A stretch of DNA of 64,000 nucleotides from Ginglymostoma cirratum (GCA_024137785.1 JAHRHZ010000042.1:24486128-24550127), one strand, 5' to 3'. Shown: positions 1 to 56,122, numbered from the stretch's first letter. The notes: generated by a model not told the origin, from the letters alone. Made by a program: numbers and translations.

Positions 1-101
1 CCTTTTCTGATGAAGGGTCTAGGCCCGAAACGTGAAGCTTTCCTGCTCCTCTGATGCTGCTTGGCCTGCTGTGTTCATCCAGCCCCACACCGTGTTATCT
101 C
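1..101 (+). mobile_element. Short PLE-derived hammerhead-motif element (family A), at window edge
   Basis: CTGATGA-A-GGG-TCTAGG-CCC-GAAA-CGT at 7-33 followed by cctgctcctctgatgctgcttggcctgctgtgttcatccagc...gttatctc, the same body as copies at 9.1, 15.1, 19.2, 20.6, 22.6 and 49.8 kb. Confidence 0.85.
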
Positions 102-1226
102 TGCTCTTTCAAGTAGCTCTTTTTGCAGATTTTGGTTACAGAACAGAACACAGGCTTGGGAAGGCTCTCCTTCTGTTTCTCAAACAGTAAAGCACCCAGT
201 TACAGCCCTGACTGTAAAGTAACATCAGGAAACTCAGAAAATAAAAGACGGCTGCACCATTCACTAGTGTTAAGGTCCAAAAACTCAATTAGCCAATTAT
301 GGTCTCAGGTTAAAACCTTATGCCTCGAGGATACAAAGAAAACACAAATATGCATATTCTTTATATTTTATTTTCCTTTTGTACTGGGCACTAGCCCCTT
401 GTAATTTTGTACCTGTGCGTGAGGACATCAGTGGCTGCCCAGAGACCAGGTATTTGACATTGCATCTTGATTACTTTTATTTGGTGTCACCAGGTAACAA
501 ACACACACCTTTTCCAAATCAAGATAACCTTGTGGTTGGCTCCTTGCTGTTACAATTAAAAAAAAACTATGTTTAAATTAGAGAAAATTACATTGCTGGG
601 TGTTGAAAACAGCAGAAAGCTGAAAAGAAGGGAGCAAATTCACACCTTCTCACTTTGGCTATGACGTGATAACAAATGCCTTTATCAAAGCATTTGTAAA
701 TAATGAAATGCAAAGTTGTCTCAGGTAAAAGCAGGTCAACTTTTTAACTCTTTTTCAGGCTGAGTTGTTCATAGAATTGTGTCCCTTGCTACATTGTAGT
801 TATCAGATTTCAGGGCAAGGAGACAAAATCAAAAAAGATCACGCAGCGGCCTTGCTACACGGCAGCATCATTCTTATTTAAGACCAGATATGTCATGTTC
901 CCTCCCCATGGTTATCAATAGATTCCTCTTATACCACTGTCCACCTAGTTGTCATCACAGCTGTCAGTATGATCAGCTCCACTTGAGTCAAATCCAAAAG
1001 CTACAATACTTGGACTTCATCTTACTTCAGCTCCTATGTAGTTTCCTTCAAAACAGACAATAGAAAACTTTTCTTACTGTATTTTCCACCGGACTGGCAG
1101 AAGTTTAATTTTAAACCATTCTATATTTTTAAGAAACTGATTATGCAATTGTTTTCATTTCAGCTTCCAGCATTTACAATTTTTAAGAATATGAAGCTGA
1201 AATTGTTTTCTTTGAGCAGAAAGACT

Positions 1227-1742
1227 TACCAATTTTTATGGATGCACAATAGAAAGCATTCTACCTGGATGCATCACAGCTTAGTATGGCAACTGCTTTG
1301 CCCAGGACTGTAAGAAACTACAGAGAATTGCGAACACATCCCAGTCCATCACACAAGCCAACCTTCCATCCATTGACCCCATCTATACTTCTCTCTGCCT
1401 CAGGAAGGTAGCCAACATAATCAAAGATCCATCCCACCTTGGTTATAATCTCTTTCACCCTCTTCTATTGCGCAGAAGATACAAAAGCTTAAACAGGCGT
1501 AACAACAGTGTCTTCCCTGCTGTTATTAGACTTCTGAATAGGCCTCTCAAATTTTAAATTTGTTTTTGATCTCGCTCTTTATGGTCCTTCTCTGCAGCCA
1601 TAACGTTGTATTCTTCACTCTGTTCTATTTCACTCATGCACTTTGTGTGGTGACGACCTGCCTGTACTGTGCGCAAAACAAAACTTTTCACTGTACCTAG
1701 GTACATGTGGCAATAATAAATTGAATCAAATCAAAATCAAAA
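1227..1742 (+). mobile_element. 5'-truncated Rex1/Babar-like LINE 3' end
   Basis: Reads NFYGCTIESILPGCITA*YGNCFAQDCKKLQRIANTSQSIT, typical of the Rex1/Babar RT C-terminus; ends with aataaa and a (tcaaa)n tail. Confidence 0.75.
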
Positions 1743-1948
1743 TTGTCCAGTGAGCTGTGCAACAACCTGCCCCTGGGCAAGTTTCTCAATTGACAATAGT
1801 TCCTGACAGGAAACCCAAAATTGCCAAATTCCAAGCTGAGAAGGCACAGCCATGTTCCTCTTCTTGACTCACTTCCACCCTTGGTTGGCTGAAAAAAGAT
1901 TAATTTGCAAGGGAATAAAGCCCAAAGAACAGTGGATATTAAAAATCA

Positions 1949-2045
1949 GTTCTGAAGAAGGGTTACTGGACTTGAAGTGTTAACTCTGCTTTATCTCCAC
2001 GGATGCTACCAGACTTGTTGGATTTTCCAAAAACTTCTGTCTTAA
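1949..2045 (+). mobile_element. Degenerate short hammerhead-motif element (family D)
   Basis: gttctgaagaagggttactggacttgaagtgttaactctg...gatgctaccagac matches copies at 17.7, 18.7, 26.3, 28.2, 46.3, 52.0 and 55.7 kb. Confidence 0.7.
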
Positions 2046-3384
2046 TTTGAAAGGATCCTTTCTCCCAGATCAAAAAAAAAATTCATATCTTAAAAAGGGG
2101 GCAACTTAACAGGCTTCCTTGAACTAGCCACCAACTGGTTTCACTAATTACAAAAAAATTAAAAGAATGCAACGCACAAATAAGAAATAGGGAGCAAGTT
2201 AAAAATAAAATATGCAAATTAGTCTTCATCATTCAAGAAGAGTAGATTGTAGAACGTTGACAGCTGAGCAGTTAAATTTTGAAATTCTTGGTAGGTTAAC
2301 CAAAATTCTTTTGTCCTGTTTCGTATTGGACGGGCTGACTAGCTGGCTTCCAGCACTCTAAGCAAGAGAATCTTTCTTACATCCAGTCTCTTTCTGATTT
2401 GTTTCCAGTGAAGACACCTTTAACTACAATGCACGAGTATGAATATGCCAAGGGGGTCGTGTGTGTTAGCTTGGATTCAGGTGCCAGTGTGCTGTTAATT
2501 TCACAATGAGAGACCGATTCACCAGTCTCCCCTGCCTTGCAATAAAAAGGCATCACCCCTCCAACTGCTGGAAGCCGTTTAAATTTAAATCTCTAATCTA
2601 AAAAGAACGTTAGCTCACCTGCAAAGCCAGGAACCTCAAAATCAACTGTTCAAATGTTGACGTCCCATGGCATACTCTGTGCAAATATCCTAATGTACCC
2701 TCATGACCTCAAGTACTTTAACTCTAATCTTTATTTTTGGATCCTTTTGGATTTTGGATTCACATTTTTGACCTATATTTGCCCGTTGTATTACTGTTTT
2801 TTTTCTTCTAAATTGACTTCTTTTAAAACATGAATTAATTTAGTCTGGGAGAAAGTTATCCACAAGGGTGGGGGATCAGTTTTAAATTAACCTTGATATG
2901 ATAAACGGAGGGGGTGGGTGAATAAAGAAAAGTTCGCTTATCCATCTCCACATAAAAGCTCAACAATTTGGGGCATCCCACTTGGAATGGCAAGAAACTG
3001 GGGGAACCTCACGTGGAGAACTGATTGTATCATTTGGTAGGTAGGATTGGGGATGTAAAGGAACAGTGCTGACACTTCCAGTAGTTTTCGGAAGGGATTC
3101 TGTGAGGTGTCAAGATCAAGATAAGGGAGGCCTATTTTTATTTTTTGTTTTAATTTGCGAGCTGTTTAAAAGAAAAGCAAAACAACTTTTCTGTTCTGGT
3201 CCCATGAAGTTTCTCAAGTTCACCTGATTTCACATCTGTCTTTTACAAATACAAAAAAAACAAGTTGGAGACACAAGCTCTTTACAATCAAAAATAATGA
3301 CCTACTTTGAGGAAAAAAAAAGTCTAGAAATCTGCAAGGAATCTAACGATGAGAAGATAAATGATGAGGAAGTTGCTTATTTTA

Positions 3385-7800: not shown

Positions 7801-9177
7801 ACTAAGCCTCTATTAGCTGTTAGATTACAAGTTAAATTTTAATTAGTTACCTAAACCTTAGTTATTCCTTTCTAAAAAATAGCACCACACACCCCACCCC
7901 TCCCCCCAACACCAACTCCCTGCACTAACCAGAAGACAAACTAACTGTATCCTTTAGAAAGACTGAGACATGCTTACCCTGCACTGCTGTGAAATTCCTT
8001 CATCTGTAGCACCACAGGAATGAACGGATTCAAACAAACTGGTCGTGACCAGACAGAAACCATGCTCCCTTTTCCCCCCGTGACATCAGCAGGATGAGTG
8101 GTTGCTGGCTCGCCGTGAAAGCAACACGCCTGACCCGAAACTAGGCCCCAGAAACTCCGCGTTCAATTTTAAATCTGCGCCGGTTTAGACTCCTCCATTC
8201 AGCTCCTGCTGCTAGCTCCTCCTAAAAAGGAACGTGCCCCAAACCGCAACTGAAATGTGCAAGCACGATGAGCTTAGTTTTAAAAAGGAATACTTGATGG
8301 TTGGGCGTGATTGCTCTGTATGAGATTTTTAATTCAGCATTACATCTATGGTTAAAAAATTTGTAAAATTATTGATTCAGTTGGCCAATAGGATTGCCTC
8401 CATTGGTAGTGCAGTCATATTAGCCAATTACAGCCAGTTTAGAAAAAAGACCCATTGATTTCCTTCTGTTTCCCTCCTCATACTCCTCCCCTCATCTTTG
8501 AACTCCTTATCTTCTCATCATATACCCCAAAACCAATGCCGATGCAACATGCCATATTATTCCCCACTGAGTCTATCAACTTTTAAGTCGTAGAAAGATC
8601 TTCTATGAACACAGCAGCAGCTTGCAGAAACCAGCCAGCAGCGATTTATGTGAAAGTAGTTAAAAAGCAGTTTAAAAAGGACCAATGCGGGTGAGCTAGG
8701 GCTTGTCTTCCTGCATCTTCAGCAATGCCGAGTTAACAGAAGGTTGGGGCACTCAGGTTCCAAATGGTGGTGCTGGCATCAAGTAAGCATGACATGTTGA
8801 CAGACATCACCCCCCTGTTACTTATTTACTTACTTACAGGCATGATCTCCCTATGCCTGTTCACAAGACAGACGTAAATGAACCCAAAATGGCACTCGTA
8901 GCACTGAAAATGTGGGAGAAGGCAACCAAATAGGACACATATCCTCATATCTGCTGTGAAGCCCCTCATCTCCACTCATCACGATTCAACGGGCTTGCTG
9001 AAATGCAGACTCAATGGAAAAATAAGGAAGCAAACCTAGGTCCTTCTACCTATCTGCAGAAAAGCTGCTAAACTGTAATCTTAGATAAAAGGTACTGCAG
9101 ATGCTGGAGAATCCGAGATAACGAGCATGGGGCTGGATGAACACAGCAGGTCAAGCAGCATCATCGGAGCAGGAAAA

Positions 9178-9211
9178 CTTGACGTTTCGGGCCTAGTCCC
9201 TTCATCAGAAA
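9178..9211 (-). ncRNA. Minimal type-I hammerhead ribozyme motif
   Basis: Minus strand: TTT-CTGATGA-A-GGG-ACTAGG-CCC-GAAA-C-GTC-AAG; full catalytic core, GUC triplet, weak 3 bp stem I. Confidence 0.7.
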
Positions 9212-9214
9212 TGA

Positions 9215-9248
9215 TTTCTGATGAAGGATCTAGGCCTGAAACGTCAAG
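9215..9248 (+). ncRNA. Minimal type-I hammerhead ribozyme motif
   Basis: TTT-CTGATGA-AGG-ATCTAGG-CCT-GAAA-C-GTC-AAG, back to back with the minus-strand copy. Confidence 0.6.
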
Positions 9249-9260
9249 TTTTCCTGCTCC

Positions 9261-9660
9261 NNNNNNNNNNNNNNNNNNNNNNNNNNNNNNNNNNNNNNNN
9301 NNNNNNNNNNNNNNNNNNNNNNNNNNNNNNNNNNNNNNNNNNNNNNNNNNNNNNNNNNNNNNNNNNNNNNNNNNNNNNNNNNNNNNNNNNNNNNNNNNNN
9401 NNNNNNNNNNNNNNNNNNNNNNNNNNNNNNNNNNNNNNNNNNNNNNNNNNNNNNNNNNNNNNNNNNNNNNNNNNNNNNNNNNNNNNNNNNNNNNNNNNNN
9501 NNNNNNNNNNNNNNNNNNNNNNNNNNNNNNNNNNNNNNNNNNNNNNNNNNNNNNNNNNNNNNNNNNNNNNNNNNNNNNNNNNNNNNNNNNNNNNNNNNNN
9601 NNNNNNNNNNNNNNNNNNNNNNNNNNNNNNNNNNNNNNNNNNNNNNNNNNNNNNNNNNNN
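9261..9660. other. Assembly gap (400 N)
   Basis: Run of n. Confidence 1.
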
Positions 9661-11590
9661 GGAGCAGGAAAACTTGACGTTTCAGGCCTAGATCCTTCAT
9701 CAGAAATCATTTCTGATGAAGGGACTAGGCCCGAAACGTCAAGTTTTCCTGCTCCGATGATGCTGCTTGACCTGCTGTGTTCATCCAGCCCCATGCTTGT
9801 TATCTCTTAAACTGTAATCTTAACTGTTTTCACCTTTTACGATTTCCGATTTTGCAATTTAACAGACAAAATGCAGCATGTTTGATGCAACACATAGTTG
9901 GTCAGCCAATGTCAGTTTGAGGTTATAAGACATGTTACGGCTTACAGATTTTCAAACATTATGTCAAGAAATGTTTCATTTTTCCAGAATTCATATCCAC
10001 ATTAAATAAATGCAACATGTAATTAAGTGGCAGGTGTGAATTTAATCCACTATACTTGGGGGCTTTTGGGATGTTTGGAGTGTTTGCAAAAAAAAATGGT
10101 TTGAATTTGAACCTGGCTGTTGTCACTATGACTTTTCATAACATTGAAAAAACTGCATACTGGTCTGCAAAAGTTTGTTTTCATTCTGAAGGAAGTATCC
10201 GTCTGTAATGCATCAAAGAAACTGCACTGAAACTGTGCAAAGATGGGATACAAGATGACAAATTTAGGTACACAGCGCATTAGTTTAATAGTCCATTAAC
10301 ATTAGAGTCATTGCTCCCAGTCTTACCATATCTAGATGGAGAAATGCAGTTTTCAACATTTAATAACCGTGACATGCTGCCATTTTGAGCAATTTTACCT
10401 CAAGTAATAAGAAATTTAATATGAATTAGAGGGAATTGCAAAGTCATTCCAAAAGCTCTGCAAGATTACAGCAGTACAAGCTGGTTGAAACAAGCTGACA
10501 CTTTCCAGTGCTCTCACATTGAGCTGGATGTGTAAGTACTGCCAGACAACCAATACTGACAGCCTTGTATAATATGGTTATCAATCTGCTAACAGGAGGT
10601 TGTAATATGCACTGTGAAAAGCATGGTCTGGTCATATGAGATAAATCACTCATTTCAGAGATGGCTGTTTAATCAATGTTAATTTGGCAACACAATTTCC
10701 TTCTCTCAAACAAAATTGCTGGGATTAGTGGCAAAATGTTATCAGCAAAATCAACCGCTAATTTTCATCAAATGGAAAGTAATTAACATTTGCTGCCTAT
10801 GAAATTACTGTATTAATGTGTATGCTGCACACACACACACACAAGCATACATGCTTGTCAAGCTGTTGAAAAAAGGACAAATTTGCAATTGTGTTTTCAT
10901 AAATGACTCAACTACATGTTATTGAAATCAGCCGGTTTGAACCTCTACCGCACTGTTAACAAGAGGCAGGGAGATTAATTGCAACCCAGAACTGTAAAAG
11001 GCAGAAAAATGTCAAACAAGCTACAACATTTGAAATATGAAAAGCCAGTGGCTTTGAGTCTGCAGTCATTCAGCTGAATGCTCCTTTCCTTGGTGAACCT
11101 TTGGACCTGTTCTTTCATGACACTCACTCACAGACTTTCCATGGGTTTTTACAACTTAAAATCCAAGTGAATCAAAAGTGCCCTCTGCACTGTATCAGAC
11201 CTGTGTGTCGAGGGAAAACAACTGTATGTCTAGCTTGATGATTCTGATCTACAAATCCGTAATAAGCAATGCAAGGAATAAGCCAGCGAGTTTCAATTAG
11301 AATAATTAACAAAGCAAATTGAAGGCAGGAAAACAAAGATTGGATGAAGAAAGGTAAATTGGAATGCAGAATGCACGAGAGGAAAACATTTTTTTTCTTT
11401 TTCTTCATCTCTAACAATAGCATAAATCTCTCAGAATTAGACTTCACATTTAATTTTCATTGCCAAAGAGATTAGGTAGAGATAGTCTAGACTAAGACAG
11501 GAAAAAATTTTGTTCTGCTGATATGATCAAGCTTAATTTTTTTTTTAGTTGAGGTTAGTGCTTGGATCAGGTCCATACAGAGTTTGACAC

Positions 11591-15106: not shown

Positions 15107-15234
15107 AGAAATAGGCCTAGGCTCGAAACGTCAGCCTTCCTGCTCCTCTGATGCTGCTTGGCCTGCTGTGTTCGTTCAGCTCTACGCCTTGTTATCTCAG
15201 ATTCTCCAGCATCTGCAGTTCCTGCTATCTCTGA
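15107..15234 (+). mobile_element. Family A mini-element with tail and 14 bp TSD
   Basis: agcatgatctattt at 15093-15106 and 15235-15248; body and tail agattctccagcatctgcagttcctgctatctctg. Confidence 0.85.
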
Positions 15235-15375
15235 AGCATGATCTATTTGTTCTTCTGCAATCAAGAAAAGGATGCCAGCCATTTTCAGAAAGAGGAGGCG
15301 CTGGTGTTGGACTCGGGCGGACAAGGTCAGAAATCACACGACATCAGGTTATAGTCCAACGGGTTTATTTGAAAT

Positions 15376-15410
15376 CACAAGCTTTCAGATCCTCTCTCCT
15401 TCTTCAGGTG
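15376..15410 (-). ncRNA. Minimal hammerhead ribozyme motif in family C PLE terminus
   Basis: Minus strand: CAC-CTGAAGA-A-GGA-GAGAGGA-TCT-GAAA-GCTT-GTG; stem I cac/gtg, palindromic AAGCTT. Confidence 0.6.
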
Positions 15411-15994
15411 TTAGTGAGAGAGGTAGCATCAGGCACAGAATTTATCAGTAAAAGATCAAAGGGTCACACCACTGATCAGGGTGTATGAAACAAATCTGAG
15501 ATGCTGTTAAATATTTAATCTGTTAGAAGATTTTAATTGATTAATAGTTATATGTAAATCCCTGAAGTTCTTTTCAGTCACTGTCCTGAGAAGACTAAAG
15601 GTTTTATTAGTGGAAAGAAGAGGTGACATTTTAGGTCAGACAACGTATGTTAGGTGTGAGGTCTTGTTTAGAATCTGTTTGTGTTTTGCTTTGGAGTCAG
15701 ACTGGTTTTATTTCTAAAGTAGGAATTTATAAAACACCACATTGACTGACTATCTATAAATTGTGTGCTTTTTGAACAAAATAGAATGTATCGGCAAATA
15801 CAAATTCACCCCATAGATTTGTGTGTGTGTGAGAGAGAGAGAGAGCGTGTGTGAGGAAGAGAGGAAGAGAGGAAGAGGGTGTATGTGTGCACACTTGAGA
15901 GACTGTGTGTTTGAGAGAGGATCTGTGACAGTTTGTGTGAGTGAGCGTGTATGTATGTATGCATGCTTGTGTGAGTGTATAGTGTGGTAGGATC

Positions 15995-16830
15995 ACCTGC
16001 AATGTGACATGAACCCAAGGTTCTGATTGAGGCTGTTCTCATGGGTACCGAGCTTGGAGGAAGTTTACGAAGATCTGAGGCTGAATGTCCTTGACATCTG
16101 AATTGTTCCCCCACTGGAAGGGAACATCTCTGTCTGGCAATTGTTGCGTGGTGCCCATTCATCCATTGTTGTCGCGTCTGCATGATTTCGCCAATGTACC
16201 ATGCCTCGGAGCATCCTTACCTGCAGCATTTGAGATAGACAACATTGGCCGAGTCACATGAGTATCTGCTGTGCGCATGGTGGGTGGTGATCCCACGTGT
16301 GGTGCTGGAGCCCATGTTGATGAACTGACATGACTTGCAGAGGTTGCCATGACAGGGTTGTGAGGTGTTGTGGTTGATGTTGTCCTGAAGGCCGGGTAGT
16401 TTGCTGTGAATAATGGTCTGTTTAAGGTTTGGTGGTTGTTTGAGGGAGAGAGGTGGAGGCGTGGGGAAGACCTTGGCGAGGTGCTCATTGTCATCAATAA
16501 TGTGTTGAAGGCTGCAAAGAACATGGCATAGTTTCTCTGCTCCTGGGAAGTATTGGACAATGAAGGGCACCCTATTGGACGTATCCCATGTCTGTCTTTA
16601 CGGAGGTGGTAATGGTTTGTTGCTGAGGCACGTCAGAACTGGCAATTGGTGCATTGAGCATCATATCCTGTTCCTATGAGGACGTCCTTCAACACCTTCA
16701 GGTGTCTGTCTCATTCCTCCTCATCTGTACAGATCCTGTGTATGTGCAGGGCTTGTCTGTATGTTGATATGTTTTAATATGGAAGCTACAGAAGTGCAGC
16801 ATCGCGAGGTTATCCGTGGGCTTGTGGTAG
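15995..16830 (-). pseudogene. PLE RT C-terminus, Cys linker and GIY-YIG endonuclease, frameshifted
   Basis: YHKPTDNLAMLHF, QALHIHRICTDEE, PFIVQYFPGAEKL, PCHGNLCKSC, YSCDSANVVYL..C, MQTRQQWMNGH across several frames. Confidence 0.85.
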
Positions 16831-16850
16831 AGTGGGCTTGTGGTAGAGTG

Positions 16851-17325
16851 AGCAACAAACTACCTAGCCTTCAGGACAACATCAACCACAACAACTCACA
16901 ACCCTGTCGTTGCACACTCTGCAAGTCATGTCAGATCTTCGACACGGACACTACCATCACACGTGCGAACACCACCCACCACATGCACAGCAGATACTCA
17001 TGTGACTCGGCCAATGTTGTCTATCTCATATGCTGCAGGCAAGGATGCTCCAAGGCATGGTATATTGGCGAAACCATGCAGACGCTACGACAATGGATGA
17101 ATGGACACCACGCAACAATTGCCAGACAGGAATGTTCCCTTCCAGTGAAGGAACACTTCAACGGTCAAAGACATTCAGCCTCCGATCTTTGGGTAAACGC
17201 CCTCAAAGACTGACTTCGGGATACACAACAACCCAGAGTCACTGAGCAGAGGCCGATAGCCAAGTTCGGTCCCCATGAGGACAGCCTCAACTGGGATCAT
17301 GGGTTCATGTTGCACTACAGGTGAC
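16851..17325 (+). pseudogene. PLE Cys linker and GIY-YIG endonuclease
   Basis: PCRCTLCKSCQ...YSCDSANVVYLICCRQGCSKAWYIGETMQTLRQWMNGH...PVKEHFN: VVY...YIG motif with Cys-rich linker as in Neptune-clade PLEs; premature stop at 17211-17213. Confidence 0.9.
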
Positions 17326-17667
17326 CCCACCCACACTTTACACACACACACACACACGAATCTGTATTCGCAGATACGTTCTATTTTGTTCAAAAAGCAC
17401 ACAACTTCGAGATAGTAGGTCAATGTGGCATTTTTATAAATTCCTACTTTAGAAGTAAAACCAGTCTGACTCCAAACTAAAACACAAACAGATTCTAAAC
17501 AAGGTCTTACACTTAATGTGCATTGTCTGACCTAAAATGTCACCTCCCCTTTCCACTGATAAAACCTTTAGTTCCCTCAGGACCATGAGTTGAAAGGAAT
17601 TTGGGGATTTACATATACATATTAATCAATTAAAACTTGGTAACTGATTAAAGATTTAATAGCATCT

Positions 17668-17769
17668 GTTCTGAGGAAGGGTCACCGGACCCAAAACGTT
17701 AGCTCTGTTTTTCCCTTCACAGATGCTGCCAGACCTGCTGAGCTTTTCCAGCAACTTTGTTTTTGTTCC
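17668..17769 (+). mobile_element. Family D mini-element inserted into the family C right arm
   Basis: gtt-ctgagga-a-gggtc-accg-gaccc-aaaa-cgtt; imperfect TSD taatagcatct (17657-17667) / taacagcaact (17770-17780); absent from the left arm. Confidence 0.8.
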
Positions 17770-17938
17770 TAACAGCAACTCAGGGTTGACTAATACATCC
17801 TGATGAGTGGTATGGCCCTTTGATTTTTTACTTATAAAATCTGTGTGAGATACTACCTCTCTCAGGGTTTGAGTGAAGATTTGTAGTTTGGGTGCTGGTT
17901 ATAGATGTTGGTGTGTTTGCTGAGCTGGGAGATTTGAT

Positions 17939-17980
17939 AGCAGACATTTCGTCCCCATACTAGTTGACATCCTCAGTGCT
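17939..17980 (-). ncRNA. Minimal hammerhead ribozyme motif, family B
   Basis: Minus strand: AGCA-CTGAGGA-T-GTC-AACTAGTATGGG-GAC-GAAA-T-GTC-TGCT; perfect 4 bp stem I, 3 bp stem II, GUC triplet. Confidence 0.75.
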
Positions 17981-18676
17981 GTGGAGCCTCCTGTGAACTG
18001 CTGTTGTCTTGTGCCGGTTTGAATTTATATGGCCTGGTTTTTGCTGCTTCCAGTAGGTGCCAGTTCCAGCAATGCTTTGTAATGGTCGGTATTCAGGAAA
18101 TCCACACATACTGACCAGCCCTTAAACTAGCACTGCAACGCCCCAACTCACACAAGAGGAACTGCATTAGGACCCTGGTTAAAAGGGCCTCTACACACTG
18201 CAACACACCTGATCTGCAGAAGGAAGAAGAACACCTCTATGAAGGTCTTTACCAGGAATGGATACCCCCGCAGCTTCACCCACAGACGCCTAGCCAACAG
18301 ACAACACAACCAGGACACACCAAAACCTGAAACAATAACCTCCATACCATACATTAAAAAAAAACCTCAGAACTGACAGCCTTACGACTCAGACCACGAG
18401 AAATCATGACAGTACACAAACCGGCAGCCACACTAAGACAGCAGCCGACCAGAGTTAAAGACCCAATAGATACCATGGACAAGACAAGTGTGGTTCACAA
18501 GATACCCATGCAGAGACCTCACAAAACACTACGTGGGACAAACAGGCAGACAACTAGCAACCCGCATCCACAAACACCAGCTAGCAACTAAATGAAACGA
18601 CCAGACATCCTTGGTTTCAAAACACACAGACAAGAAAATCCACACTTTCAACTGGGACAAGACTACTATCTTTGGC

Positions 18677-18912
18677 ACAAAAACAGAAGTTGCTGGAGAA
18701 GCTCAGCAGGTCTGGCAGCATCAGTGAAGAAAATATCAAAGTTAACGCTTTGGGTCCGGTGACCCTTCCTTAGAGCTCAGAACTCGGGTCACCGGATCCG
18801 AAACGTTAACTTTGATATTTTCTTCACCGATGCTGCCAGACCTGCTGAGCTTCTCCAGCAACTTCTGTTTTTGTTCCTAATTTACGGCATCCATAGTTCT
18901 TTCAGTATTTAT
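18677..18912. mobile_element. Palindromic family D mini-element inserted in family B GIY-YIG region
   Basis: acaaaaacagaagttgctggagaagctcagcagg... mirrored by ...cctgctgagcttctccagcaacttctgtttttgt; tail on right arm only. Confidence 0.85.
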
Positions 18913-19126
18913 TGCTTTCATCAGACAAGTTAAACAGAGGACAGCCAGGGAATTCTTGGAGGATTGGCATTCGTCCACAGAATTCATCAACAAATACATG
19001 GAATTAGACACGATATACCAACCATTAGAACGCACAGCCAGAACCAGCACCTACCAGAAGCAGCAAAAACCAGGCTATATAAATTCAAACCGGCACAAGA
19101 TAACAGCACTTCACAGGAAGCTCCAC

Positions 19127-19168
19127 AGCACTGAGGGTGTCACCTAGTAAGGGGACGAAACGTCTGTT
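19127..19168 (+). ncRNA. Minimal hammerhead ribozyme motif, family B (A9 changed to G)
   Basis: AGCA-CTGAGGG-T-GTC-ACCTAGTAAGGG-GAC-GAAA-C-GTC-TGTT. Confidence 0.6.
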
Positions 19169-19211
19169 ATCAAACCTCCCAGCTTGGCAAACACACTAAC
19201 ATCCACAACTA

Positions 19212-19472
19212 GAGATAACAAAGTGCAGAGCTGGATGAACACAGCAGGCCAAACAGCACCAGAGGAGCAGGAAAGCTGATGTGGGGGCCCATTTCTGAAG
19301 AAGGGTCGAGGCCCGAAATGTCAGATTTCCTGCTGCCCATTTCTGAAGAAGGGTCCAGGCCCGAAACGTCAGCTTTCCTGCTCCTCTGATGCTGCTTGGC
19401 CTGCTGTGTTCATCCAGCTCTACACCTTGTTATCTCAGATTCTCCAGCATCTGCAGTTCCTCCGATCTCCGA
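19212..19472. mobile_element. Palindromic family A mini-element with two tandem hammerhead motifs
   Basis: TSD aacatccacaacta (19198-19211) / aacatctacaacta (19473-19486); inverted arms; CTGAAGA...GAAA cores at 19295 and 19343. Confidence 0.85.
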
Positions 19473-19674
19473 AACATCTACAACTACATCTCTCACTAAC
19501 ATCTTAAGAAGGAGAGAGGCTCCGAAAGCTTGTGTTTTCAAATAAATCTGTTGGACTGATGTTGTGTGATTTCTGACCAACATAAAGTGACACATATGTA
19601 CAACTGACACAAAAAAATACTTGATCGAAGAATTTTAAAGAGCATCTTAGTCGAAAGGGCTAATGGATCTCGAC

Positions 19675-20060
19675 TAGAATCAAAAAGACATTATGATATG
19701 GGGAGGCCACTGAGCCCACTGTGTCTATATCATCCTCCAGAAGCCAATCAATTTCTCCACCGTATCCCTATAGCCCTACAAGATTATCACCCACAAAAAC
19801 CATCCCATTTGCTTTTGAAATTATCCATTATATCTGCTTCCACAACTCTTTTTCAGAAATGAGTTCAAACCATTATCACTCAATCTTAATCACTTCATCT
19901 GACAAAGGAGCAGTGCTTCGAAAGTGTGTGTTTTCAAATAAACCTGTTAAGACTATTATCTGGTGTCATGTGACTTCTGACTCAATCTAAAAACATTTTC
20001 CCGCACATTGCCCTGCATATCCTCCACAATAGTTTAAATCTTTGTCCTCTGGTTGTCATA
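19675..20060 (-). mobile_element. Degraded CR1 3' end, interrupted by a family C terminal fragment
   Basis: tagaatc...ggaggccactgagccc...tatccctatagccct, the reverse-complement CR1 3' UTR pattern. Confidence 0.5.
19889..19979 (+). mobile_element. Solo family C terminal fragment with decayed hammerhead motif
   Basis: catctgacaaaggagcagtgcttcgaaagt...caaataaacctgttaagacta...tgacttctga matches 19500-19577; direct repeat actcaatct at 19878-19886 and 19980-19988. Confidence 0.7.
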
Positions 20061-20633: not shown

Positions 20634-20724
20634 GAGATAACAAGGTGTAGAGCTGGATGAACGCAGCCGGCCAAGCTGCATCAGAGGAGCAGGAAAGCTG
20701 ACGTTTTGGGTCAAGACCCTTCAT
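20634..20724 (-). mobile_element. Family A mini-element with 13 bp TSD
   Basis: tataaaattttga at 20623-20635 and 20725-20737. Confidence 0.85.
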
Positions 20725-22566: not shown

Positions 22567-22660
22567 GTTAACAAGGTGTGGGGCTGGATGAACACAGCAG
22601 GCCAGGCAGCATCAAAGGAGCAGAAAAGCTGACGTTTCAGGTCTAGACCCTTCTTCAGAA
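22567..22660 (-). mobile_element. Family A mini-element with intact hammerhead core and 14 bp TSD
   Basis: aaattattccacaa at 22553-22566 and 22659-22672; minus strand ttCTGAAGAagggtctagacctGAAAcGTCag. Confidence 0.85.
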
Positions 22661-26317: not shown

Positions 26318-26487
26318 AAACGGAAAGAACAGCGGATGCTGTAAATCAGAAACAAAAACAGAAATTGCTGGAAAAGCTCAGCAGGTCTGGCAGAATCTGT
26401 GAAGAGAAATCCGAATTAATGTTTCAGGCCTGGCGACCCTTCTGCGGAAGGTGGCCCTTTTGAGGAAGGATCATCGGACCCAAATGT
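26318..26487. mobile_element. Family D mini-element with short inverted end and 11 bp TSD
   Basis: attcatagtga at 26307-26317 and 26488-26498. Confidence 0.8.
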
Positions 26488-28160: not shown

Positions 28161-28379
28161 CAAAAACAAAGTTGCTGCTAAAGCCCAGCAGGTCTGGCAG
28201 CATTTGTGAAGGGAAAAAACAGAGTTAACGTTTCAGGTCCAGTGACCCTTCCTCAGAACCCGACCCGAGACGTTAACTCTGGTTTCTCTTTCACAGATGC
28301 TGCCAAACCTGCTGAGCTTTTCCAGCAACTTTGTTTTTGTTCCTGATTTAGAGCATCTGCAGTTCTTTTGGTTTTTATT
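28161..28379. mobile_element. Palindromic family D mini-element with 14 bp TSD
   Basis: aactactgtggcca (28147-28160) / aactgctgtggcca (28380-28393); inverted arms; tail on right arm only. Confidence 0.85.
28224..28259 (-). ncRNA. Minimal hammerhead ribozyme motif, family D
   Basis: Minus strand: GTT-CTGAGGA-A-GGGTC-ACTG-GACCT-GAAA-C-GTT-AAC; stem I gtt/aac, 5 bp stem II, palindromic AACGTT, GUU triplet. Confidence 0.7.
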
Positions 28380-46226: not shown

Positions 46227-46303
46227 AATGTTTGTTGCAATCCTTATTGTGCAAATAGCACAAATGCAGCATCACTCGTAAAACATAAGAGCAGAAAAAC
46301 TTT

Positions 46304-46398
46304 TGTTCTGATGAAGGTTCACTGGAATAAAAATGTTGACTCTGCTTCTCTCTACAGATGCTGTCTGACCTGCTGATTTTCTTCAGCACTTTGTTTGT
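46304..46398 (+). mobile_element. Degenerate family D mini-element
   Basis: gttctgatgaaggttcactgg...aaatgttgactctg...cagatgctgtctgacctgctga. Confidence 0.7.
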
Positions 46399-46402
46399 GT
46401 AA

Positions 46403-47993
46403 TACATAATGAATGATTTGTTCAGTCAGCAGACCAGGAGACTCATTGACCTATAAGAAAGAAATTAGCTCGTACTAAAGTGATATTAATTAAAGAAAGA
46501 TGTTAAAAACCAAGTCAAATAGGATGCTTAGGAGAACCAAATGCAACCTGGAGTTTTTAGTTTCCCTGAATGCATCAGAACGAATACTTGAAAATGCTGC
46601 ATGGCAATTTTCAAATGTGTATTTTTATATAACATATCTTTGTTTCACTACGTTATTGGCGTTTAAATTGTCACATGAGTTGTACCGCACTCACTCATTG
46701 AGCCTTAAGAACATGGTTTGCACTTTGCAGCAAATAAGCAAAGATAAAACTACATTTAGATAATGATTTATACAAGGAACTGTTCTTCCTCTTTTTCAGT
46801 GACTGAAGTCCAACAGATGAAAATAACCCTTCATGCCTTTTGGTTTCTTCATTGGTTCTGTTCGAAACTCTGCATATTCTGCCATTTTTTGAAACTTGTC
46901 AAAATCTCCTGATCTAAAATTTCTCAAGTCCTCTTGTATGTTACTGCTTTATAATTCTAATTCAAAAAATTATATTGATCAACAGTCCACATTTCTTATT
47001 CTCCATCACAAAATGAAATAATCCTGGTAAATTCTCAATGACAAGATCCCAAAATGTTAAAATACTTGGAGACACTAAGGGCTGCAGATTCTGGAAGTCA
47101 GAGTTGATAAAACGTGGAGCTGGAGGAGCACAGCAGGTCAGGATGAAGGGGCCAGACCCGAAATGTCAACTTTCCTGCTCCGGGAAAACTGACATTTCCG
47201 GTCTGGACACTTCATCCTGACCTGCTGTGTTTCTCCAGCTCCACATTTTATCAATGTTAAAATATTACTTTATTAACAAGTCTCGCTCAATGTACAGGCC
47301 AGGTCCTGTTGATGACGTTTCATAACTTAATGTACAGAAAAATTAAAACATGAAGGGGAAATATTCCGTAAACATTCTTGTGTAAACCTGGCCTTATTCA
47401 TCTTCAGGCTCAAATGTAGAGTCTGTTAAACTTGTCAGACCCTCTCTCCAGACACGTGAAAGTACAAATTTACATCAATGTCGGATAGCAACAATAAAAT
47501 GCCACTTTTTCCAGCCAGCCATAATGACTTCTTGTTAGCTTTGGAAAGTAACTTCAACATATTTAACACTTAATTCTTACCACTTATCTTTTCCATATGC
47601 ATTTCTTTCCATACGTGAAACAGATGGGTGTTCAGTTTAACCAATCATAAACCATTAAGAGAAAGGACTTTAATTGCAGCGATCTTCCTTGGCACTCAAT
47701 GATCGAGTGCTGCACAACTCATGTGACAATTTAAACACTAATCATGCTGTGAAACAAAGATATGTTATATAAAAATGAACATTTGAAAATTGCCATGCAG
47801 CATTTTCAAGTATTCGTTCTGATGCATTCAGGGAAACTAAGAACTCCAGGTTGCATTTGGTTCTCCTAAGCATCCTATTTGACTTGGTTTTTAACATCTT
47901 TCTTTAATTAATACCACTTAGTATGAGGTAATTTCTTCCTTATAGGACAATGAGTCTCCTGGTCTGCTGACTGAACAAATCAGTCAATATGTA
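46403..47993. repeat. Pair of ~300 bp inverted repeats (46403-46702 / 47695-47993) around a ~1 kb spacer
   Basis: Direct reverse-complement match, e.g. gaatgcatcagaacgaatacttgaaaatgctgcatggcaattttcaaatg at 46.57-46.62 kb versus its complement at 47.78-47.83 kb. Confidence 0.95.
47065..47252. mobile_element. Palindromic family-A-related mini-element with 12 bp TSD
   Basis: aatgttaaaata at 47053-47064 and 47253-47264; arms 47104-47175 / 47182-47254. Confidence 0.8.
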
Positions 47994-48174: not shown

Positions 48175-49277
48175 ACAAACACAATCTCTCTCCTTCAACC
48201 TATGGACCATGGTGTAATAGAAGCGTTTAAAGCTTATTATTTAAGGCACATATTTAAGAGGCTGATTGCAGCCACTGAGGGGGATAACGACAGTGTTCTT
48301 CAGTTTTGGAAGAGTTTTAACATCAAGAATACAATTGACATTATCGTGGAGACCTGGAGTGATGTCAGTAAGGACTGCTTGCATGCAGTTTGGCAGAAGC
48401 TTATCCCAGGTTTTTTTCAAGATTTTAAAGGCTTTGATCCATCAGAGGAGCTCCCAAGAATCAAAGAACATTGTGTTGATATGGCAAAGCAAGTTGGATT
48501 TGAAGAAGTCGAGAGTGAGGGTGTTGAAGAGCTGCTGGAGTCCTACTGTGAAGACCTCCCTACAGCTGATCTGCAACAACTTGTCACTGAGGGGATAATG
48601 GAAGGCAGAGATGAAGAAGATGAAGTCCAGGATGCAGCACCACCAGACATTTCCACTTTTGTTTTGTCTTCTATCCTGAGGGAGGTTGAGAAGCAATTGC
48701 AGCTCTGAGAGGACAATGATTACAATGCAGAATGCAGCAGGGTAGCAGTTTGTGAAATAAGATCTTATTCGACACCCTGTGAACAGCTTCTTCATGAAAG
48801 ACGACAAAGGGAAAAGCAACAAAAACTGAATGTCTTTTTTAAGCCACCCCCAAGAAACAGTCAGAGGGCAATAGGCAATAGCCAGCCACTTCTGGATTAA
48901 CTATTTTTTCACGCCAACCATGTACCACAACTGCACCTGTAAGTGATGATGATGATGATGATGGCAACCGTTAGCCCCAGCATTAACAGCAGAGCAACCT
49001 CAAAACCTCTTCCCCAATCAAATCATCTTGACATTTTTCAAGGTAAGGTGTTAGATGTACTTTTATTTCATTATTGGATATGAATTAAACATTTATTCAA
49101 ACTGTGCTATCCTCTGTGTTCAGCTTTTGAGTGAATTTTGAACGATTTTGAGATACTTTTTGGTGGTCTGCCCCAATTCCGCTTTTCCCATTGGCCACAT
49201 TATTTCTTTGGCATGATTTTTTATGACATGCTGTTGCACAGGAACGCAACTATCATGATATAGCAGAACCGACTGTA
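48175..49277 (+). mobile_element. Tigger/pogo DNA transposon 3' half (DDE_1 transposase C-terminus and right TIR)
   Basis: NTISLLQPMDHGVIEAFKAYYLR...FWKSFNIKNTIDIIVETWSDV...AVWQKL is the Tigger PNTTSLLQPMDQGVI..FK..Y motif; ends gcagaaccgactg followed by TA (49276-49277). Confidence 0.9.
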
Positions 49278-49770: not shown

Positions 49771-49870
49771 AAGTTTTCCTGCTCCTATGATGCTGCTTGA
49801 CCTGCTGTGTTCATCCAGCCCCATGCTTGTTATCTCGGATTCTCCAGCATTTGCAGTACCTTTTATCTCT
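49771..49870 (+). mobile_element. Family A mini-element (subtype nearly identical to the 9.1 kb copy), lacking the ribozyme core
   Basis: aatattaa at 49765-49772 and 49871-49878; body is the reverse complement of 9083-9180 with about three differences. Confidence 0.85.
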
Positions 49871-51117: not shown

Positions 51118-51458
51118 AATTGACTAACAGGATGTGGGCATCACTGGTCTAGCCATCAAAACCTCCAAGAGGGCAGTTCAGTGTCAACCACATTTATGTG
51201 CATCTGGAGTCACATGCAGGCCAGCTCAGACAGACCAGACAATAGTTTCCTTTCCCAAAAGGCGTCAGTAAAGTAAATGGATTTTCCTGACAATCAACTA
51301 TAGCTTCATTGCCATTACTAAACTCATAATTCCAGATATTTTTTGAATTCAAATTCCGTCATCTGCTATGACAGACTTTGAACTTGAGTCCCCAGAACAC
51401 TACCGGGGTCTCTCGATTAATAGCCCAGTGATAATACAACCAGGTCATCACCTCCCTC
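51118..51458 (-). mobile_element. tRNA-derived SINE (same family as 21196-21528)
   Basis: caggatgtgggcatcactgg...tctggagtcacatgcaggcca...gaattcaaattcc...aggtcatcacctccc. Confidence 0.8.
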
Positions 51459-52004
51459 GCTGGTCATGGCATTACTATTGGTGGTACTTACAGAGGAGTT
51501 GAAAAACGTATTGAGAATTACAAAGTTATAGTGACTAGATTATGTCCCAGTTCATATAGGTTTACTGCACAGCTTCTTTCAGTCTATTTCCTGAGTGCAA
51601 GTTTCAAAGTCCTCCTGTCTCTGTTCTCCATCTACAACATAGCTGTCAGCAGTACTTATCTCCTTGACTTCTACGGGCAAATATGTGGCAAGTTGAAGCA
51701 ATAGATGGAAAAAAGACATCGGAGAGATTTAATACTCAAAGTGGGGTTTTGTGCCAGCACAGCTATGATTTAACCAACAGCAGGAGATACTCAGCCCAGC
51801 AGCTTTCCTTGCACTGCATGGGGGAGGAGGGAGGGTGGAATTGTAGTTCAAAATTTAATTTGCATATTGAGCCTATTAAAGTGCCCCACCAACTATCAAC
51901 AGTAAAGTATAAAACTGGAGATTTTTAGTCATTTTGTACATTAAATCTGGTATCTATTTTATAATTTACAGTCTAAATTGCTGACTGATATTTTATTTAA
52001 TTAA

Positions 52005-52225
52005 CAATGACAGAAATTGAGGAGCCATTCAAAAGGTCTGGCAGCATTTGTGGCGACAAAGCAGAGATGGTGTTCCAAGAACAGTAACGCCTCTTCAGAA
52101 CACAAACACAGAATAGGACTCAAAATGGTAACTCTACTTTCTCTTCACGGATGCTGTCGGACCTGCTGAGATTTTCCAACAATTTCTGATTTTGTTTCAG
52201 ATCGTCAGTTCTTTGTTTTATTTTA
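52005..52225. mobile_element. Old palindromic family D mini-element
   Basis: acagaaattg...aggtctggcagcatttgtg...cttcagaac mirrored by ...gatgctgtcggacctgctgagattttccaacaatttctg. Confidence 0.65.
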
Positions 52226-53994
52226 GTGTTTAGTCAATGTTGGTTTTGTAAATCTGTGTCATAGTAAAGTCTTTAAACTTAAAAATCTTCCGATGTGATC
52301 CTTTCAATAAATGTTTGTCTCCATCGGGACCACATCACAGCGGAGTAAAGATCAATCTCTCCAAGGAGAGATTTTAACTAATTCAGTGTTCTTGCTCAAA
52401 TTCCAAACTGAGTTCCGGGGCTGAACAGGATGGGCTAAAATTGACGATGATATTCCACAGCTGCATGACCTTGAATGAGTCCTGTGAACATTCCTGTATG
52501 TGCTGAGGACTGCATAATCAACGTGTTTTTCTGTACTTGCTGTTTGTTACACTGTATATGAGAGAGAGTTTCCTTCCCAGTGGTTGGACTTCACCTCAGA
52601 TTGGGACCGTGAAAGGTACCAGGAACAACCTAAGCCTCCAGACCAGCTGTCGATTGAGGGGACCCCCACAGGCATAAGGGTGTGAGGTTTCCTGTCTTTC
52701 TTTTCTTTCCTTTTTCATTTTCTTTTTACATACTTAAAAAAATTCATATTTAAGTAAATTCATGTCGTTGAGTCTTCTTTTAACTACATTTGACAGAATC
52801 TGAAAAGAACCATTTGGTTACACGTTGTGATCCAAGACGGTAGCCAGCCAAAATATATCCCCCTCAAAGCACGAGTAAGGACTAATGTGACCTGTCTTAC
52901 CGTCAATATGTCAGTATACCTTTAATTAACATTCTCATGAAAGCATCAGCATAGTGCCTATGACCTGAGAGTACAAAGGTCCCATTCTCCATCTTACCTC
53001 AGGAAGTCTCAAAGCATGACATGCTACAAGTACTGCTCTCTGCTGTCAACGACTAGTGAATTTCCCTTAGGAATGTAATGTTTGCATACAATAGTCAGCT
53101 GTAATAAACATCAGTTGGATTGTTAAACAGCACAATATCCAGACCCAGTATCTTAGGAACAAAGCTGTTGCACTAACAGCATTCTGTCATTACAGTTAAT
53201 AAAAAATCTGACTGTGGACGTTCTTGTATTTTCAGGCATCTTATGTTTTATGGAAACAAAGTTGAGCAAAGAATATCTGTAACATTAACTGCGTGAGAAT
53301 TTATTTTATATTTTAGCAGAGAGTGGTTGTGGTCTTGGTATTCTTTTTAATTGATTCAAAATGAGATCAACAAATTACAGTCTGCTAGTCATCAGAACTG
53401 CACAAGCGTGTTTTCTTCATGGGAAGAAAAGGGAGTTTACTGAGTTTTAGATTTGTGCTAACAAGGCAAATGAAAATGAGTACTTATTTGATGATAATGA
53501 AGATAGCTGAGTTCATAGAAAAGTCACAGTGCTGGACTATTGATGTGCAATTGCCAAGTCTGATATTAATTCTCCTGAAACCTACTTACTTGTACTGCTG
53601 TATGTTGTCAAGGGTAAGCTAATCATGCTTGACAATATTTGTTCATGGCTGAATAATATGTCAGTTGTTCCAACTCCTCCCTTATCTGTTATAGGAACAA
53701 ATAGTTTACAGCATCTGTTATTTGTTTCAAATTAGATACTTGCATGAAGTCAGACCCACTGCAGTGCAATATTTAACAACGCTGAACGAGCTCAAATTAT
53801 ATCTAATTGGTCTTATTCTATATCATAGCACTCAGCAAATCTGGTGAAGATATCTTAAAAATTTCCCGAGTGAGGCAATCAACATTCAAATCAATGTTTA
53901 ATTGCAGCTTTGCTGATGTGAATTAAGCTCCAAGTGTCTTTTTCTTACAATTCCAGTTCAGCTATAATTTTAAAAGTTCCAAAGATCTCACCCA

Positions 53995-54420
53995 GAATGC
54001 AGTGGTACAGTGTTAATATTCTTGTTTTCAAAGTTGTGAATTCAAACATGGGTTGAGGAAAAGTCAAAGCAAGCTGGGACTTCACAGCCATACTGAGGAG
54101 TTAGTACAATTCTGAAAGTACACATTTCAGAAGGGATATTAAACTCAATTGCTAACTTAACTCTCAGCTAGATATAAAATATCCTGTGACAAAATTCAAA
54201 GATAACCAAGATGACTTCTTCCAGTGAGCACGTTGATATTAATGCCCCAACCGAAACATTTTCTCTGGTCATTATCTCGAAGAAATTGCTTTGTTCAAAT
54301 TGGTTGCTAAGCTTTTCTGGACAACAATAATGTTTCAAAAGGTCCTTCATTAGTTGCAAAGCACATTGAAATGTGCTAGCGTTGTGACAGCCATTGCATA
54401 ATTGAAAACTTGTTTTCTCT
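53995..54420 (+). mobile_element. Ancient Deu-domain-like SINE, very degraded
   Basis: tctggtcattatc...ttgttcaaattggttgct...ttcaaaaggtccttcattagttgcaaagcacattg resembles the DeuSINE core and L2-like tail. Confidence 0.5.
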
Positions 54421-55689
54421 TGAACAATTTTTACTACAAGTTAATGAAGTCCATATCATATTGTCCTTTTCATGATTAGGATGCTTGCATTAGTGTTTTT
54501 TTCTTAAATTGAGTCTCTTCAATCTTTACTGTCCCAGAGAAAAAGGTACCCATCACCAGGAAAGAACGTTTCACTTATTTTCTTTGGATGGACTTCAGTT
54601 TGTTATACCACTTAACTAATGAGGATTTCTGAAAATTCCCAGAATTGAATTGGAAACAAATGCACAGTGAGAATCTGAGCCATGACAATGACAAGGTGAG
54701 TTGTTAGCATTATCACTGAGTGGAAGTGGACTGTATCTGATTAACACCCAGAAATTACAATGTACTCTTGTCAGTTGAAAGAGATTTGATAGTGTTTGTT
54801 AGTAACAACATTACAGGATGGGCAATCAAATAATCAAAGTAATAACTCACATGACAGAAAGGATTTTGAAGGATTGTTGCTGTACTTTAGCATAAAGCAG
54901 AGTTAGTAACCGGGGAAAAGATACAGATGTGCAAGTGAAGAAAATTTAGAGAAGAGAAATGAAACAACACGATCGGGATCAAGGTGTAGAATGGGAAAAA
55001 GAAATGGTCACAATTGATAGAAAAGAATATTCCCTCATTTTTTTCTGAACAGGGCATCTTATTACAAGACAGCAAAGAGAAAACGGGTATGTCTTCCAAA
55101 AGCTGCCGCGTTTGCGTACACAAAAAAAAAATCTACAATCCTCTGTCTCATGTTGTTGTGGCAGCTGTACCTTGTTAAAGAAGTTTGATGCATCTTTTGA
55201 ACAATGCTGCAGTAGACAATGATGAATTACCAACATTGTGGTAAAGTGGTAGGGTCTCTGAGTCTGGGCCAGAAGTCTGGGTTCGAGTCTTACTTGCGCT
55301 GGAAGCGTCTCACAATAAGGTTGATCCAAGTGACTTAAAAAGTGGCCACTGTGATCCTGTCACAGATAACCATGTTAAGGCAGCCAGAATAACTCAAGCA
55401 GTGGAAAGAAATCTAACCTTGTTGTTAAACATAATGATGTAACAAACCTGGCACGCAGAAGAATGGCCCAATATAATTTCATTTTCACAACAAGCTGATC
55501 ATCTGATTTGGAAACTGGATGTAAAGACCAAATCCAACTCCTTACTCTACTTTCTTCAGGATCAGGTTGGGAATTGACACCAGATTAATGATACATCTTC
55601 TCCAAATCTGTACAGTTGTTTCCAAGCAAAACTACTTAACACCAACACTACATGTGTCGAGTAAACACATCCTAAGCAGCATGGCATTT

Positions 55690-56122
55690 ATGAGAAAGAA
55701 ACTCAGCCCGTTTGGCAGCATTTTAAATCCAGTGACCCTTTGTCAGAACTGACATCTGCTCTGACAAAGGGTTACTGGACTGGAAACATTAACTTTATGT
55801 CTCTATACATAGATGCTACCGGACCTGCTGTGTTTCCCCAGCAAATAAAAACCGAAAAACTGCGGATGCTGTAAATCAGGAACAAAAACAAAGTTGCTAG
55901 AAAAGCTCAGGAGGTCTGCCAACATCTGTCAAGAAAAAAATCAGAGTGAACATTCCGGGTTTTCCGAGGAAGGGTCACCGGACCCAAAACATTAACTCTG
56001 ATTTTTTCTTCACAGATACTGCCAGACCTGCTGAGCTTTCCAAGCAACTTTGTTTTTGTTTGTGTTTCTCCAGTACCCTATCTTTGTTTCAGATTTCCAC
56101 AATCCAAAGTCCGTGGTGTTTA
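55690..56122. mobile_element. Two nested palindromic family D mini-elements
   Basis: Inner element 55844-56060 flanked by tgtgtttccccagca (55829-55843) / tgtgtttctccagta (56061-56075) inside an older copy. Confidence 0.8.

Follow-up and report, generated by a model that had tools for sequence, protein, structure and literature searches.

Minimal hammerhead motifs in a 64-kb Ginglymostoma cirratum window very probably belong to the terminal repeats of Penelope-like elements, most of them decayed

A 64,000-nucleotide stretch of the Ginglymostoma cirratum genome (GCA_024137785.1 JAHRHZ010000042.1:24486128-24550127; hereafter the window) carries numerous motifs with the core of a minimal hammerhead ribozyme. 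These motifs are very probably the minimal type-I hammerheads of Penelope-like element (PLE) terminal repeats (pLTRs), borne by about 20 mostly decayed insertions of three lineages: Neptune-type (family C), Poseidon-type (family B) and a pair of short families, A and D. The first-pass annotation of the window had cited one motif from each of the four families, and all four were found where it had placed them, each on the minus strand, which it had left unstated. The hammerhead residue numbering and the NUH rule followed here are established knowledge.

The minimal type-I search proposed in that annotation was run on the window with a strict descriptor (CUGANGA, one spacer nucleotide, a stem II of at least 3 bp, GAAA, NN-U-H and a stem I of at least 2 bp). 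Eight matches were obtained, compared to a mean of 0.02 (maximum 1) in 300 dinucleotide shuffles, and all of them fell within PLE-type ends. Because the sequences flanking an N gap (9166-9260 and 9661-9755) are exact reverse complements of one another, one of the eight matches is an assembly duplicate, leaving seven distinct copies. A covariance model was trained on 15 copies from families A, C and D, which are themselves among its matches, and recovered 22 matches at E<=0.021 among the 27 listed for the window. Family B was omitted from this model and from the covariation test because it was misaligned in the 13-row cross-family alignment. Subtraction of two gap duplicates and addition of two B copies lying outside the model yielded ~22 distinct recognisable motifs, in line with the earlier estimate of about 20 intact or decayed copies. 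With 5'-truncated arms included, 31 arms carry part of a hammerhead; the core is kept in eight of them and the core together with both stems in seven, the remaining 24 being broken or truncated.

The seven intact arms share a stem II of 3-5 bp, a stem I of 2-5 bp (just 2 bp in the commoner A subtype, as at 19343 and 22658), an extra nucleotide after A9 and a G10.1-C11.1 pair. Helix III is replaced by a palindrome at 15.1-16.1 which, CpG decay aside, reads ACGU in families A, B and D and AGCU in family C. The motif thus matches the published metazoan PLE consensus, with H after CUGANGA, G10.1-C11.1 and palindromic 15.2/16.2 (PMC4209133, text and Fig. S3). Self-BLAST and family queries resolved 20 insertions (8 A, 9 D, 1 B and 2 C). 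The motifs had been assigned to at least four unrelated repeat families. Downstream of the cleavage site, A and D aligned with scores of 47-58 against shuffle maxima of 40-45, none of 1000 shuffles scoring as well in any of four pairs, whereas nine pairs of B or C with another family were at chance level, 171-851 of 1000 shuffles being as good. Homology beyond the ribozyme thus joins A to D, B and C being unrelated to them and to each other, and the sequence comparison leaves three lineages, C, B and the related pair A/D, rather than four. The statement that the stems differ in sequence but still pair around a fixed core held by eye between lineages but fell short of statistical significance in the 15 A, C and D copies, where 71.5% of cells were paired, a value reached by 24 of 500 shuffles.

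The link to PLE termini, given as background in the first-pass annotation, is direct for families B and C through the adjoining remnants of reverse transcriptase (RT)/GIY-YIG open reading frames (ORFs), and is made for A and D by insertion anatomy. The B and C coding remnants are 61-78% identical to named shark proteins. Thirty relatives of the C ORF end were retrieved at E<=0.001 among 44 candidates, and all those named to species come from sharks (Heptranchias, Scyliorhinus, Mustelus and Chiloscyllium), in keeping with the shark-like character that had been ascribed to the window. Domain scans revealed RVT_1 in four of six C relatives and GIY-YIG in one of six; a CX2-5CxxC linker precedes GIY-YIG in 3/3 C relatives and in the window frames. 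As this linker marks Neptune/Nematis PLEs (PMC8557442), family C appears to be a Neptune-type PLE, the linker being shared with Nematis. The B ORF end yielded 133 relatives, with RVT_1 in 10 of 12 and GIY-YIG in 7 of 12 at E<=0.01, and the linker was absent from the nine B relatives checked (9/9), suggesting a Penelope/Poseidon-type PLE whose clade is assigned from the missing linker alone. The RT core itself is missing from both window copies owing to 5' truncation and is seen in their relatives. One protein, P0031, aligns through the B hammerhead region (19030-19207 and 17891-18097), which places the same pLTR in a related element elsewhere, one whose predicted ORF reads into it.

The insertions also have the anatomy of PLEs. 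When the 20 intervals were compared with a null distribution from 147 random controls, target-site duplications (TSDs) of 12-16 bp were found in 10 of them, each scoring above the null maximum. All four families have two discrete 3' ends 30-40 nt apart, and the resulting tail is present on one arm only in 8/8 two-armed insertions displayed with both arms, the other three agreeing by eye. A head-to-head, inverted, 5'-truncated partner accompanies 11 of the 20 insertions. An inverted 5'-truncated copy and a 30-40-bp tail are known PLE traits (PMC8557442), as are head-to-head junctions, associated with TSDs of 8-10 bp (PMC3846280), and insertion into existing PLEs (PMC6765202). Five insertions in the window are nested in PLE copies older than themselves (P=0.013, a rough post hoc estimate): the C element at 15290-19578 holds D and B insertions, the B element in turn holds D and A, and 55842-56060 is a D inserted in a D.

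Several results weigh against this assignment or lend it no support. Half of the intervals (10/20) had no convincing TSD, and an Rfam scan of the window matched no hammerhead family at E<=5. The covariation that the first-pass annotation had put forward as a check on the stems was not significant within the window, the score being reached by 102 of 500 shuffles on the 15 A, C and D copies, which are few and decayed. Pfam matched neither RT nor GIY-YIG in 12 frames of the B and C remnants, the identity of which is therefore drawn from their relatives; a word-seeded protein search with B returned none of 464 candidates, and a PDB sequence search with a C fragment gave nothing meaningful. No coding sequence adjoining A or D was found in the window. 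A GTDB motif scan for an autonomous A/D partner had no matches and a peptide search with the A frame found six predicted proteins, all short and all lacking an RT domain, both being weak evidence. With neither coding part nor autonomous partner found, the PLE membership of A and D is based on their anatomy and motif.

In the mechanism that we propose, the motif of an active parent RNA, having no helix III of its own, would pair through its 4-nt palindrome (ACGU or AGCU) with a second copy, and cleavage after GUC, GUU or CUU would be slow and assisted by dimerization or protein, as established for other PLEs. The GIY-YIG nuclease of the element would nick both target strands 12-16 nt apart, generating the TSD, and RT would start at either of two sites lying 30-40 nt from each other on the RNA, generating tail-bearing and tail-less ends. 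By analogy with the Anolis element PAc, both nicks may prime cDNAs whose ends are then joined into a head-to-head palindrome with a single tail: the protein of PAc cleaves the two strands of the target and extends each of them, initiates reverse transcription at two sites one tail apart, uses RNA that is uncleaved and aids the element's own hammerhead (PMC11167929). The A/D copies of ~130-150 nt that begin inside the hammerhead would stem from a template starting at stem I and mobilized in trans. Once inserted, copies would decay neutrally, most of them not being working ribozymes.

The sharp 5' boundary of A and D bears on the nature of that template. The start is visible in 26 A/D arms and lies in every one of them between about -8 and +29 of C3, falling at -8 to -1 in 16. 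The references carried 12 upstream nucleotides, a limit that none reached save one self-palindrome artefact (A9218, the start of which was corrected by eye), and the upstream flanks have nothing in common beyond inverted partners. As all A/D arms start inside the hammerhead, stem I is the probable beginning of the template RNA, which would correspond either to a ~140-nt non-autonomous element or to copies produced by run-off at the 5' end of the mRNA of an autonomous one. An alternative that falls somewhat short of probable is that A and D are not a separate element but derive from long autonomous PLEs, either as 5'-truncated ends or as 5'-proximal run-off copies, RT having stalled in the hammerhead or run off the 5' end of the mRNA. 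In agreement with this, 10 of the 26 arms end within the hammerhead, stem II of which could make RT stall; PAc reverse transcription starts internally, 111-118 nt into an ORF beginning at the hammerhead, which would yield copies of similar length from the 5' end of the mRNA (PMC11167929); and the short C-related copy at 19890 likewise starts at its own hammerhead. Yet about -8 is the limit for all 26 A/D arms, in contrast to the B and the large C insertion with their upstream ORF of up to ~1 kb, the A and D alignments reveal by eye no common reading frame across the tail, and no RT-bearing protein matched the A frame. We tentatively raise the possibility that A and D form an undescribed class of ~140-nt non-autonomous PLEs ("hammerhead-capped mini-Penelope") starting at stem I, otherwise made up only of a conserved 3' domain of ~100 nt harboring two RT start sites, and inserting by priming on both target strands; such elements might be present in sharks in 10^5-10^6 copies, many more than the minimal-hammerhead counts in the literature, and seed long perfect hairpins genome-wide. 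RNAalifold analysis of seven A/D arms suggested a putative shared 3' structure made of a 7-bp long-range helix into the tail and a 4-bp hairpin, with two-sided changes in just 1 of 14 pairs. In this 3' domain (e.g. 19385-19460), the predicted helix and small hairpin are a candidate protein-binding or RT-start structure.

The two arms of the palindromes give mixed indications of how these were made. Five of six D palindromes combine a truncated arm that bears the tail (+6 to +19) with a complete arm that lacks it (-1 to -3), a pattern suggestive, with n=6, of two cDNAs rather than one folded back; a single folded cDNA would need a later central deletion to produce it. Fold-back (self-priming) of a single cDNA has been proposed for rotifer Penelope, in which head-to-head junction palindromes were read in this way (PMC3846280), and it is supported here by the A palindrome at 19212, which, in reverse of most D palindromes, has a full arm with the tail and a truncated arm without it, and by the D palindrome at 18671, whose arms are mutual best matches at 95% identity. 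In contrast, the arms of the palindromes at 28161, 55842 and 52003 (86, 83 and 59% identical, respectively) are not mutual best matches, and fold-back appears rather unlikely as the origin of the palindromes.

The inference in the first-pass annotation that shark genomes hold a very large ribozyme population is an overstatement: the motifs are real and dense in the window, but a large population of working genomic ribozymes cutting host transcripts is very improbable. The seven arms with core and both stems (~51-110 per Mb) would favor it, as would a same-strand tandem pair 48 nt apart (19295/19343), a natural dimer candidate though inside a palindrome, and the fact that the PAc hammerhead cleaves with protein help (PMC11167929). 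The A copy at 49773, whose 5' end coincides with the predicted cleavage site to within a 2-nt microhomology, points the same way; this single case is possibly a cDNA of the 3' cleavage product. Set against these are the 24 of 31 arms broken or truncated and the decay of the C11.1-G12 CpG, which looks neutral: in 25 scorable arms (six misregistered or too diverged ones being dropped), the dinucleotide was intact in 12, changed to the tolerated TG in 7, changed to the lethal CA in 5 and altered at both positions in 1, G12 being lost in 6/25, about as often as its tolerated partner C11.1 (8/25). Predicted probabilities of stem I and of stem II were <=0.02 in all seven intact copies with 60 or 150 nt of flank, and five palindromes are predicted to fold as long hairpins burying the motif (-113 to -167 kcal/mol). 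The dimer fold of the tandem pair (19290-19375) was put at +0.2 kcal/mol compared to -30.1 kcal/mol for the minimum free energy (MFE) structure, i.e. ~30 kcal/mol higher. The folding model behind all these predictions ignores tertiary contacts, co-transcriptional folding and chaperones or other proteins. Published minimal hammerheads without helix III were inactive as monomers and weak as dimers (PMC4209133), and eight of nine Xenopus dimers did not cleave (bioRxiv 10.64898/2026.07.22.740005). The copies thus appear to be mostly fossils rather than working ribozymes, though individual ones may be active.

The view that the motifs are chance matches, or miniature inverted-repeat transposable element (MITE) or microRNA (miRNA) hairpins unrelated to hammerheads, has a negligible probability: besides the missing Rfam hammerhead match, it draws on a best match to a miRNA model on the 18681-18870 hairpin, yet this match (MIR8670, 97.5 bits against a gathering threshold of 150) reflects the family D palindrome only, the tail and long variable TSDs are PLE traits, and the reading is refuted by the descriptor counts against shuffles, with all strict matches in PLE-type ends, and by the linkage of C and B to ORFs. 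The Rfam matches to MIR8670, MIR533 and mir-761 were rejected as sub-threshold and confined to palindromes. The D palindrome at 18681-18870 and its like could be mis-called as miRNA precursors.

Recognisable motifs reached 346 per Mb in this one 64-kb window and intact ones 110 per Mb, a value that falls to 51 per Mb when the nested cluster is set aside. Scaled to a 2.96-Gb genome, the yardstick being the whale-shark assembly (PMC8455134), this would amount to 1.5-3.3 x 10^5 intact motifs, compared to highest published vertebrate counts of ~4,000 in coelacanth and ~9,000 in Xenopus (PMC4209133), the extrapolation deriving from one window and from a descriptor that differs from those of the published counts. 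PLE-derived DNA makes up ~10% of the window; in the whale shark, unclassified repeats account for 10.85%. As Penelope-like elements have already been reported in the whale shark, with an expansion in introns (bioRxiv 10.1101/443036), it is doubtful that the elements can be called unannotated in sharks. Our literature search, which left Lunse et al. and Repbase/Dfam outside its range, found no account of shark PLE hammerheads other than one chondrichthyan in a preprint on retrozymes.

The hammerheads are of a known kind, namely PLE terminal-repeat minimal hammerheads, here in a shark and mostly fossil. The "massive and widespread" occurrence of such ribozymes in animal genomes has been published (PMC4209133), and with both their location at PLE ends and their abundance known, the core claim will not surprise a specialist. 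Those animal hammerheads share with ours the type-I topology, the core (CUGANGA-H and GAAA-NN-UH), G10.1-C11.1, the palindromic 15.2/16.2 and a short stem I, as well as the presence of several families per genome, mostly as single truncated copies with some opposite-strand pairs; cartilaginous fish are absent from the rows of Fig. S3 and the supplementary material examined (PMC4209133). Family C shares with Neptune-clade PLEs an RT followed by the CX2-5CxxC linker and by GIY-YIG at the C terminus, the inverted 5'-truncated partner and the tail (PMC8557442), but its window copy is the broken 3' end of an ORF only. Family B similarly shares with PAc, of the Penelope/Poseidon group, an RT and GIY-YIG without Cys linker, a pLTR hammerhead and two 3' ends one tail apart (PMC11167929), but is a dead 5'-truncated copy. 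A and D resemble animal non-LTR retrozymes in being non-coding and bearing a type-I hammerhead, retrozymes having been proposed to be non-autonomous PLE derivatives (bioRxiv 10.64898/2026.07.22.740005). Retrozymes, reported in tandem from one chondrichthyan in the same preprint, form head-to-tail arrays, whereas A and D occur dispersed, as solo copies or head-to-head, have a TSD and a tail, and include a single partial tandem (19290-19375); membership of A and D among retrozymes was rejected on this ground. Finally, the solo and inverted pLTRs of Adineta vaga Penelope share the head-to-head junctions, an optional 31-bp tail and the TSD, and a pLTR alone suffices there for mobilization in trans (PMC3846280). 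The rotifer element is low-copy with TSDs of 8-10 bp, in contrast to the 17 A/D insertions in 64 kb with TSDs of 12-16 bp and 5' ends pinned to the hammerhead.

A short, abundant family such as A/D could help to address how PLEs integrate and what their hammerheads do. With its TSDs, two 3' ends and sharp 5' ends, such a family would make both the two-primer model and cleavage in vivo testable from genome sequence alone, copies that start at the cut site offering a genomic route to the latter.

Table 1. Features of the window. Numbers are window positions; "first-pass" denotes the motif cited for that family in the first-pass annotation.
Feature	Position	Strand	Remarks
Family A arm, tail-less, cut by window edge	1..101	+	core present, H17 = G (non-cleavable triplet)
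Old family D solo arm	1947..2049	+	decayed hammerhead 1947-1986
Family A head-to-head insertion	9084..9807	both	15-bp TSD 9069-9083 / 9808-9822
Tail-bearing arm of 9084..9807, family A hammerhead	9176-9213	-	intact; first-pass A
Second arm of 9084..9807, family A hammerhead	9213-9250	+	stem II decayed
N gap, 400 N	9261-9660		duplicates centre of family A palindrome; assembly artefact
Family A arm with tail	15107..15234	+	5'-truncated inside stem II; 14-bp TSD
Family C element (Neptune-type PLE): two 3' ends as a large inverted pair	15290..19578		hosts four nested insertions; tail on left arm only
Family C hammerhead	15375..15412	-	intact core, AGCU palindrome, CUU triplet; first-pass C
Broken C ORF 3' end: post-RT region, CX2-5CxxC linker, GIY-YIG-type endonuclease	16002..16832	-	pieces 60-83% identical to shark protein P0009
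Inverted second copy of C ORF end	16848..17318	+	66% identical to P0009
Family D solo arm within C terminal repeat	17666..17770	+	G12 -> A
Family B element (Penelope/Poseidon-type PLE) within C terminal repeat	17865..19482		13-bp TSD; left, inverted pLTR with tail; right, ORF end and pLTR
Family B hammerhead	17939..17980	-	intact core, 4-bp stem I; first-pass B
Broken B ORF end: post-RT region and GIY-YIG endonuclease	18092..19042	+	split by D insertion
Family D palindrome in B ORF	18671..18913		arms 95% identical; one long predicted hairpin, -167 kcal/mol
Second family B hammerhead	19127..19168	+	A9 -> G
Family A palindrome at end of B pLTR	19212..19472		14-bp TSD
Tandem hammerheads in 19212..19472	19290-19327, 19338-19375		same strand, intact cores, 48 nt apart; sole natural tandem pair in window
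Family C hammerhead, right arm	19498..19535	+	decayed
Short C-related solo end	19890..19981	+	begins at own decayed hammerhead
Family A solo arm, tail-less	20636..20724	-	G12 -> A; 13-bp TSD
Family A solo arm, tail-less	22567..22658	-	intact core, 2-bp stem I; 14-bp TSD
Family D tail-bearing minus arm and short inverted hammerhead piece	26318..26482		16-bp TSD
Family D palindrome	28161..28379		intact hammerhead 28222-28261 on minus (first-pass D); plus arm tail-bearing, truncated in stem II; 14-bp TSD
Non-LTR retrotransposon remnant	38060-40840	+	AP-endonuclease and RVT_1 matches
Old family D solo arm	46303..46400	+	decayed
A-related palindrome	47065..47252		hammerhead piece inverted relative to own 3' domain in both arms; 12-bp TSD
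DDE_1 transposase remnant	48145-48705	+	
Family A arm with tail, without hammerhead	49773..49870	+	5' end at predicted cleavage site within 2-nt microhomology
Old D-related head-to-head pair	52003..52224		arms just 59% identical
Old D-related palindrome	55697..56122		right arm holds younger D palindrome 55842-56060 (13-bp TSD); all four hammerheads decayed
Dispersed repeats without hammerheads (self-BLAST), group 1	5840-6372, 11591-11995, 33355-33892, 40889-41242, 42856-43066		
Dispersed repeats without hammerheads, group 2	21194-21633, 43369-43485, 51179-51456		
Dispersed repeats without hammerheads, group 3	36677-36956, 45883-46223, 57651-57976		
Dispersed repeats without hammerheads, group 4	46403-46702, 47695-47993		

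Two features of the map deserve mention. The N gap at 9261-9660 is most simply read as a misassembled palindrome, because its flanks are exact reverse complements over 95 nt and one 15-bp TSD brackets the whole; a count of four hammerheads around the gap was rejected, the flanks being the same 95-nt centre in opposite orientation. With the gap thus sitting in a palindrome that has the same centre on both sides, short-read shark assemblies may break at such elements and count them twice. The inverted hammerhead pieces at 47065-47252, for their part, look as though an already rearranged copy had been recopied.

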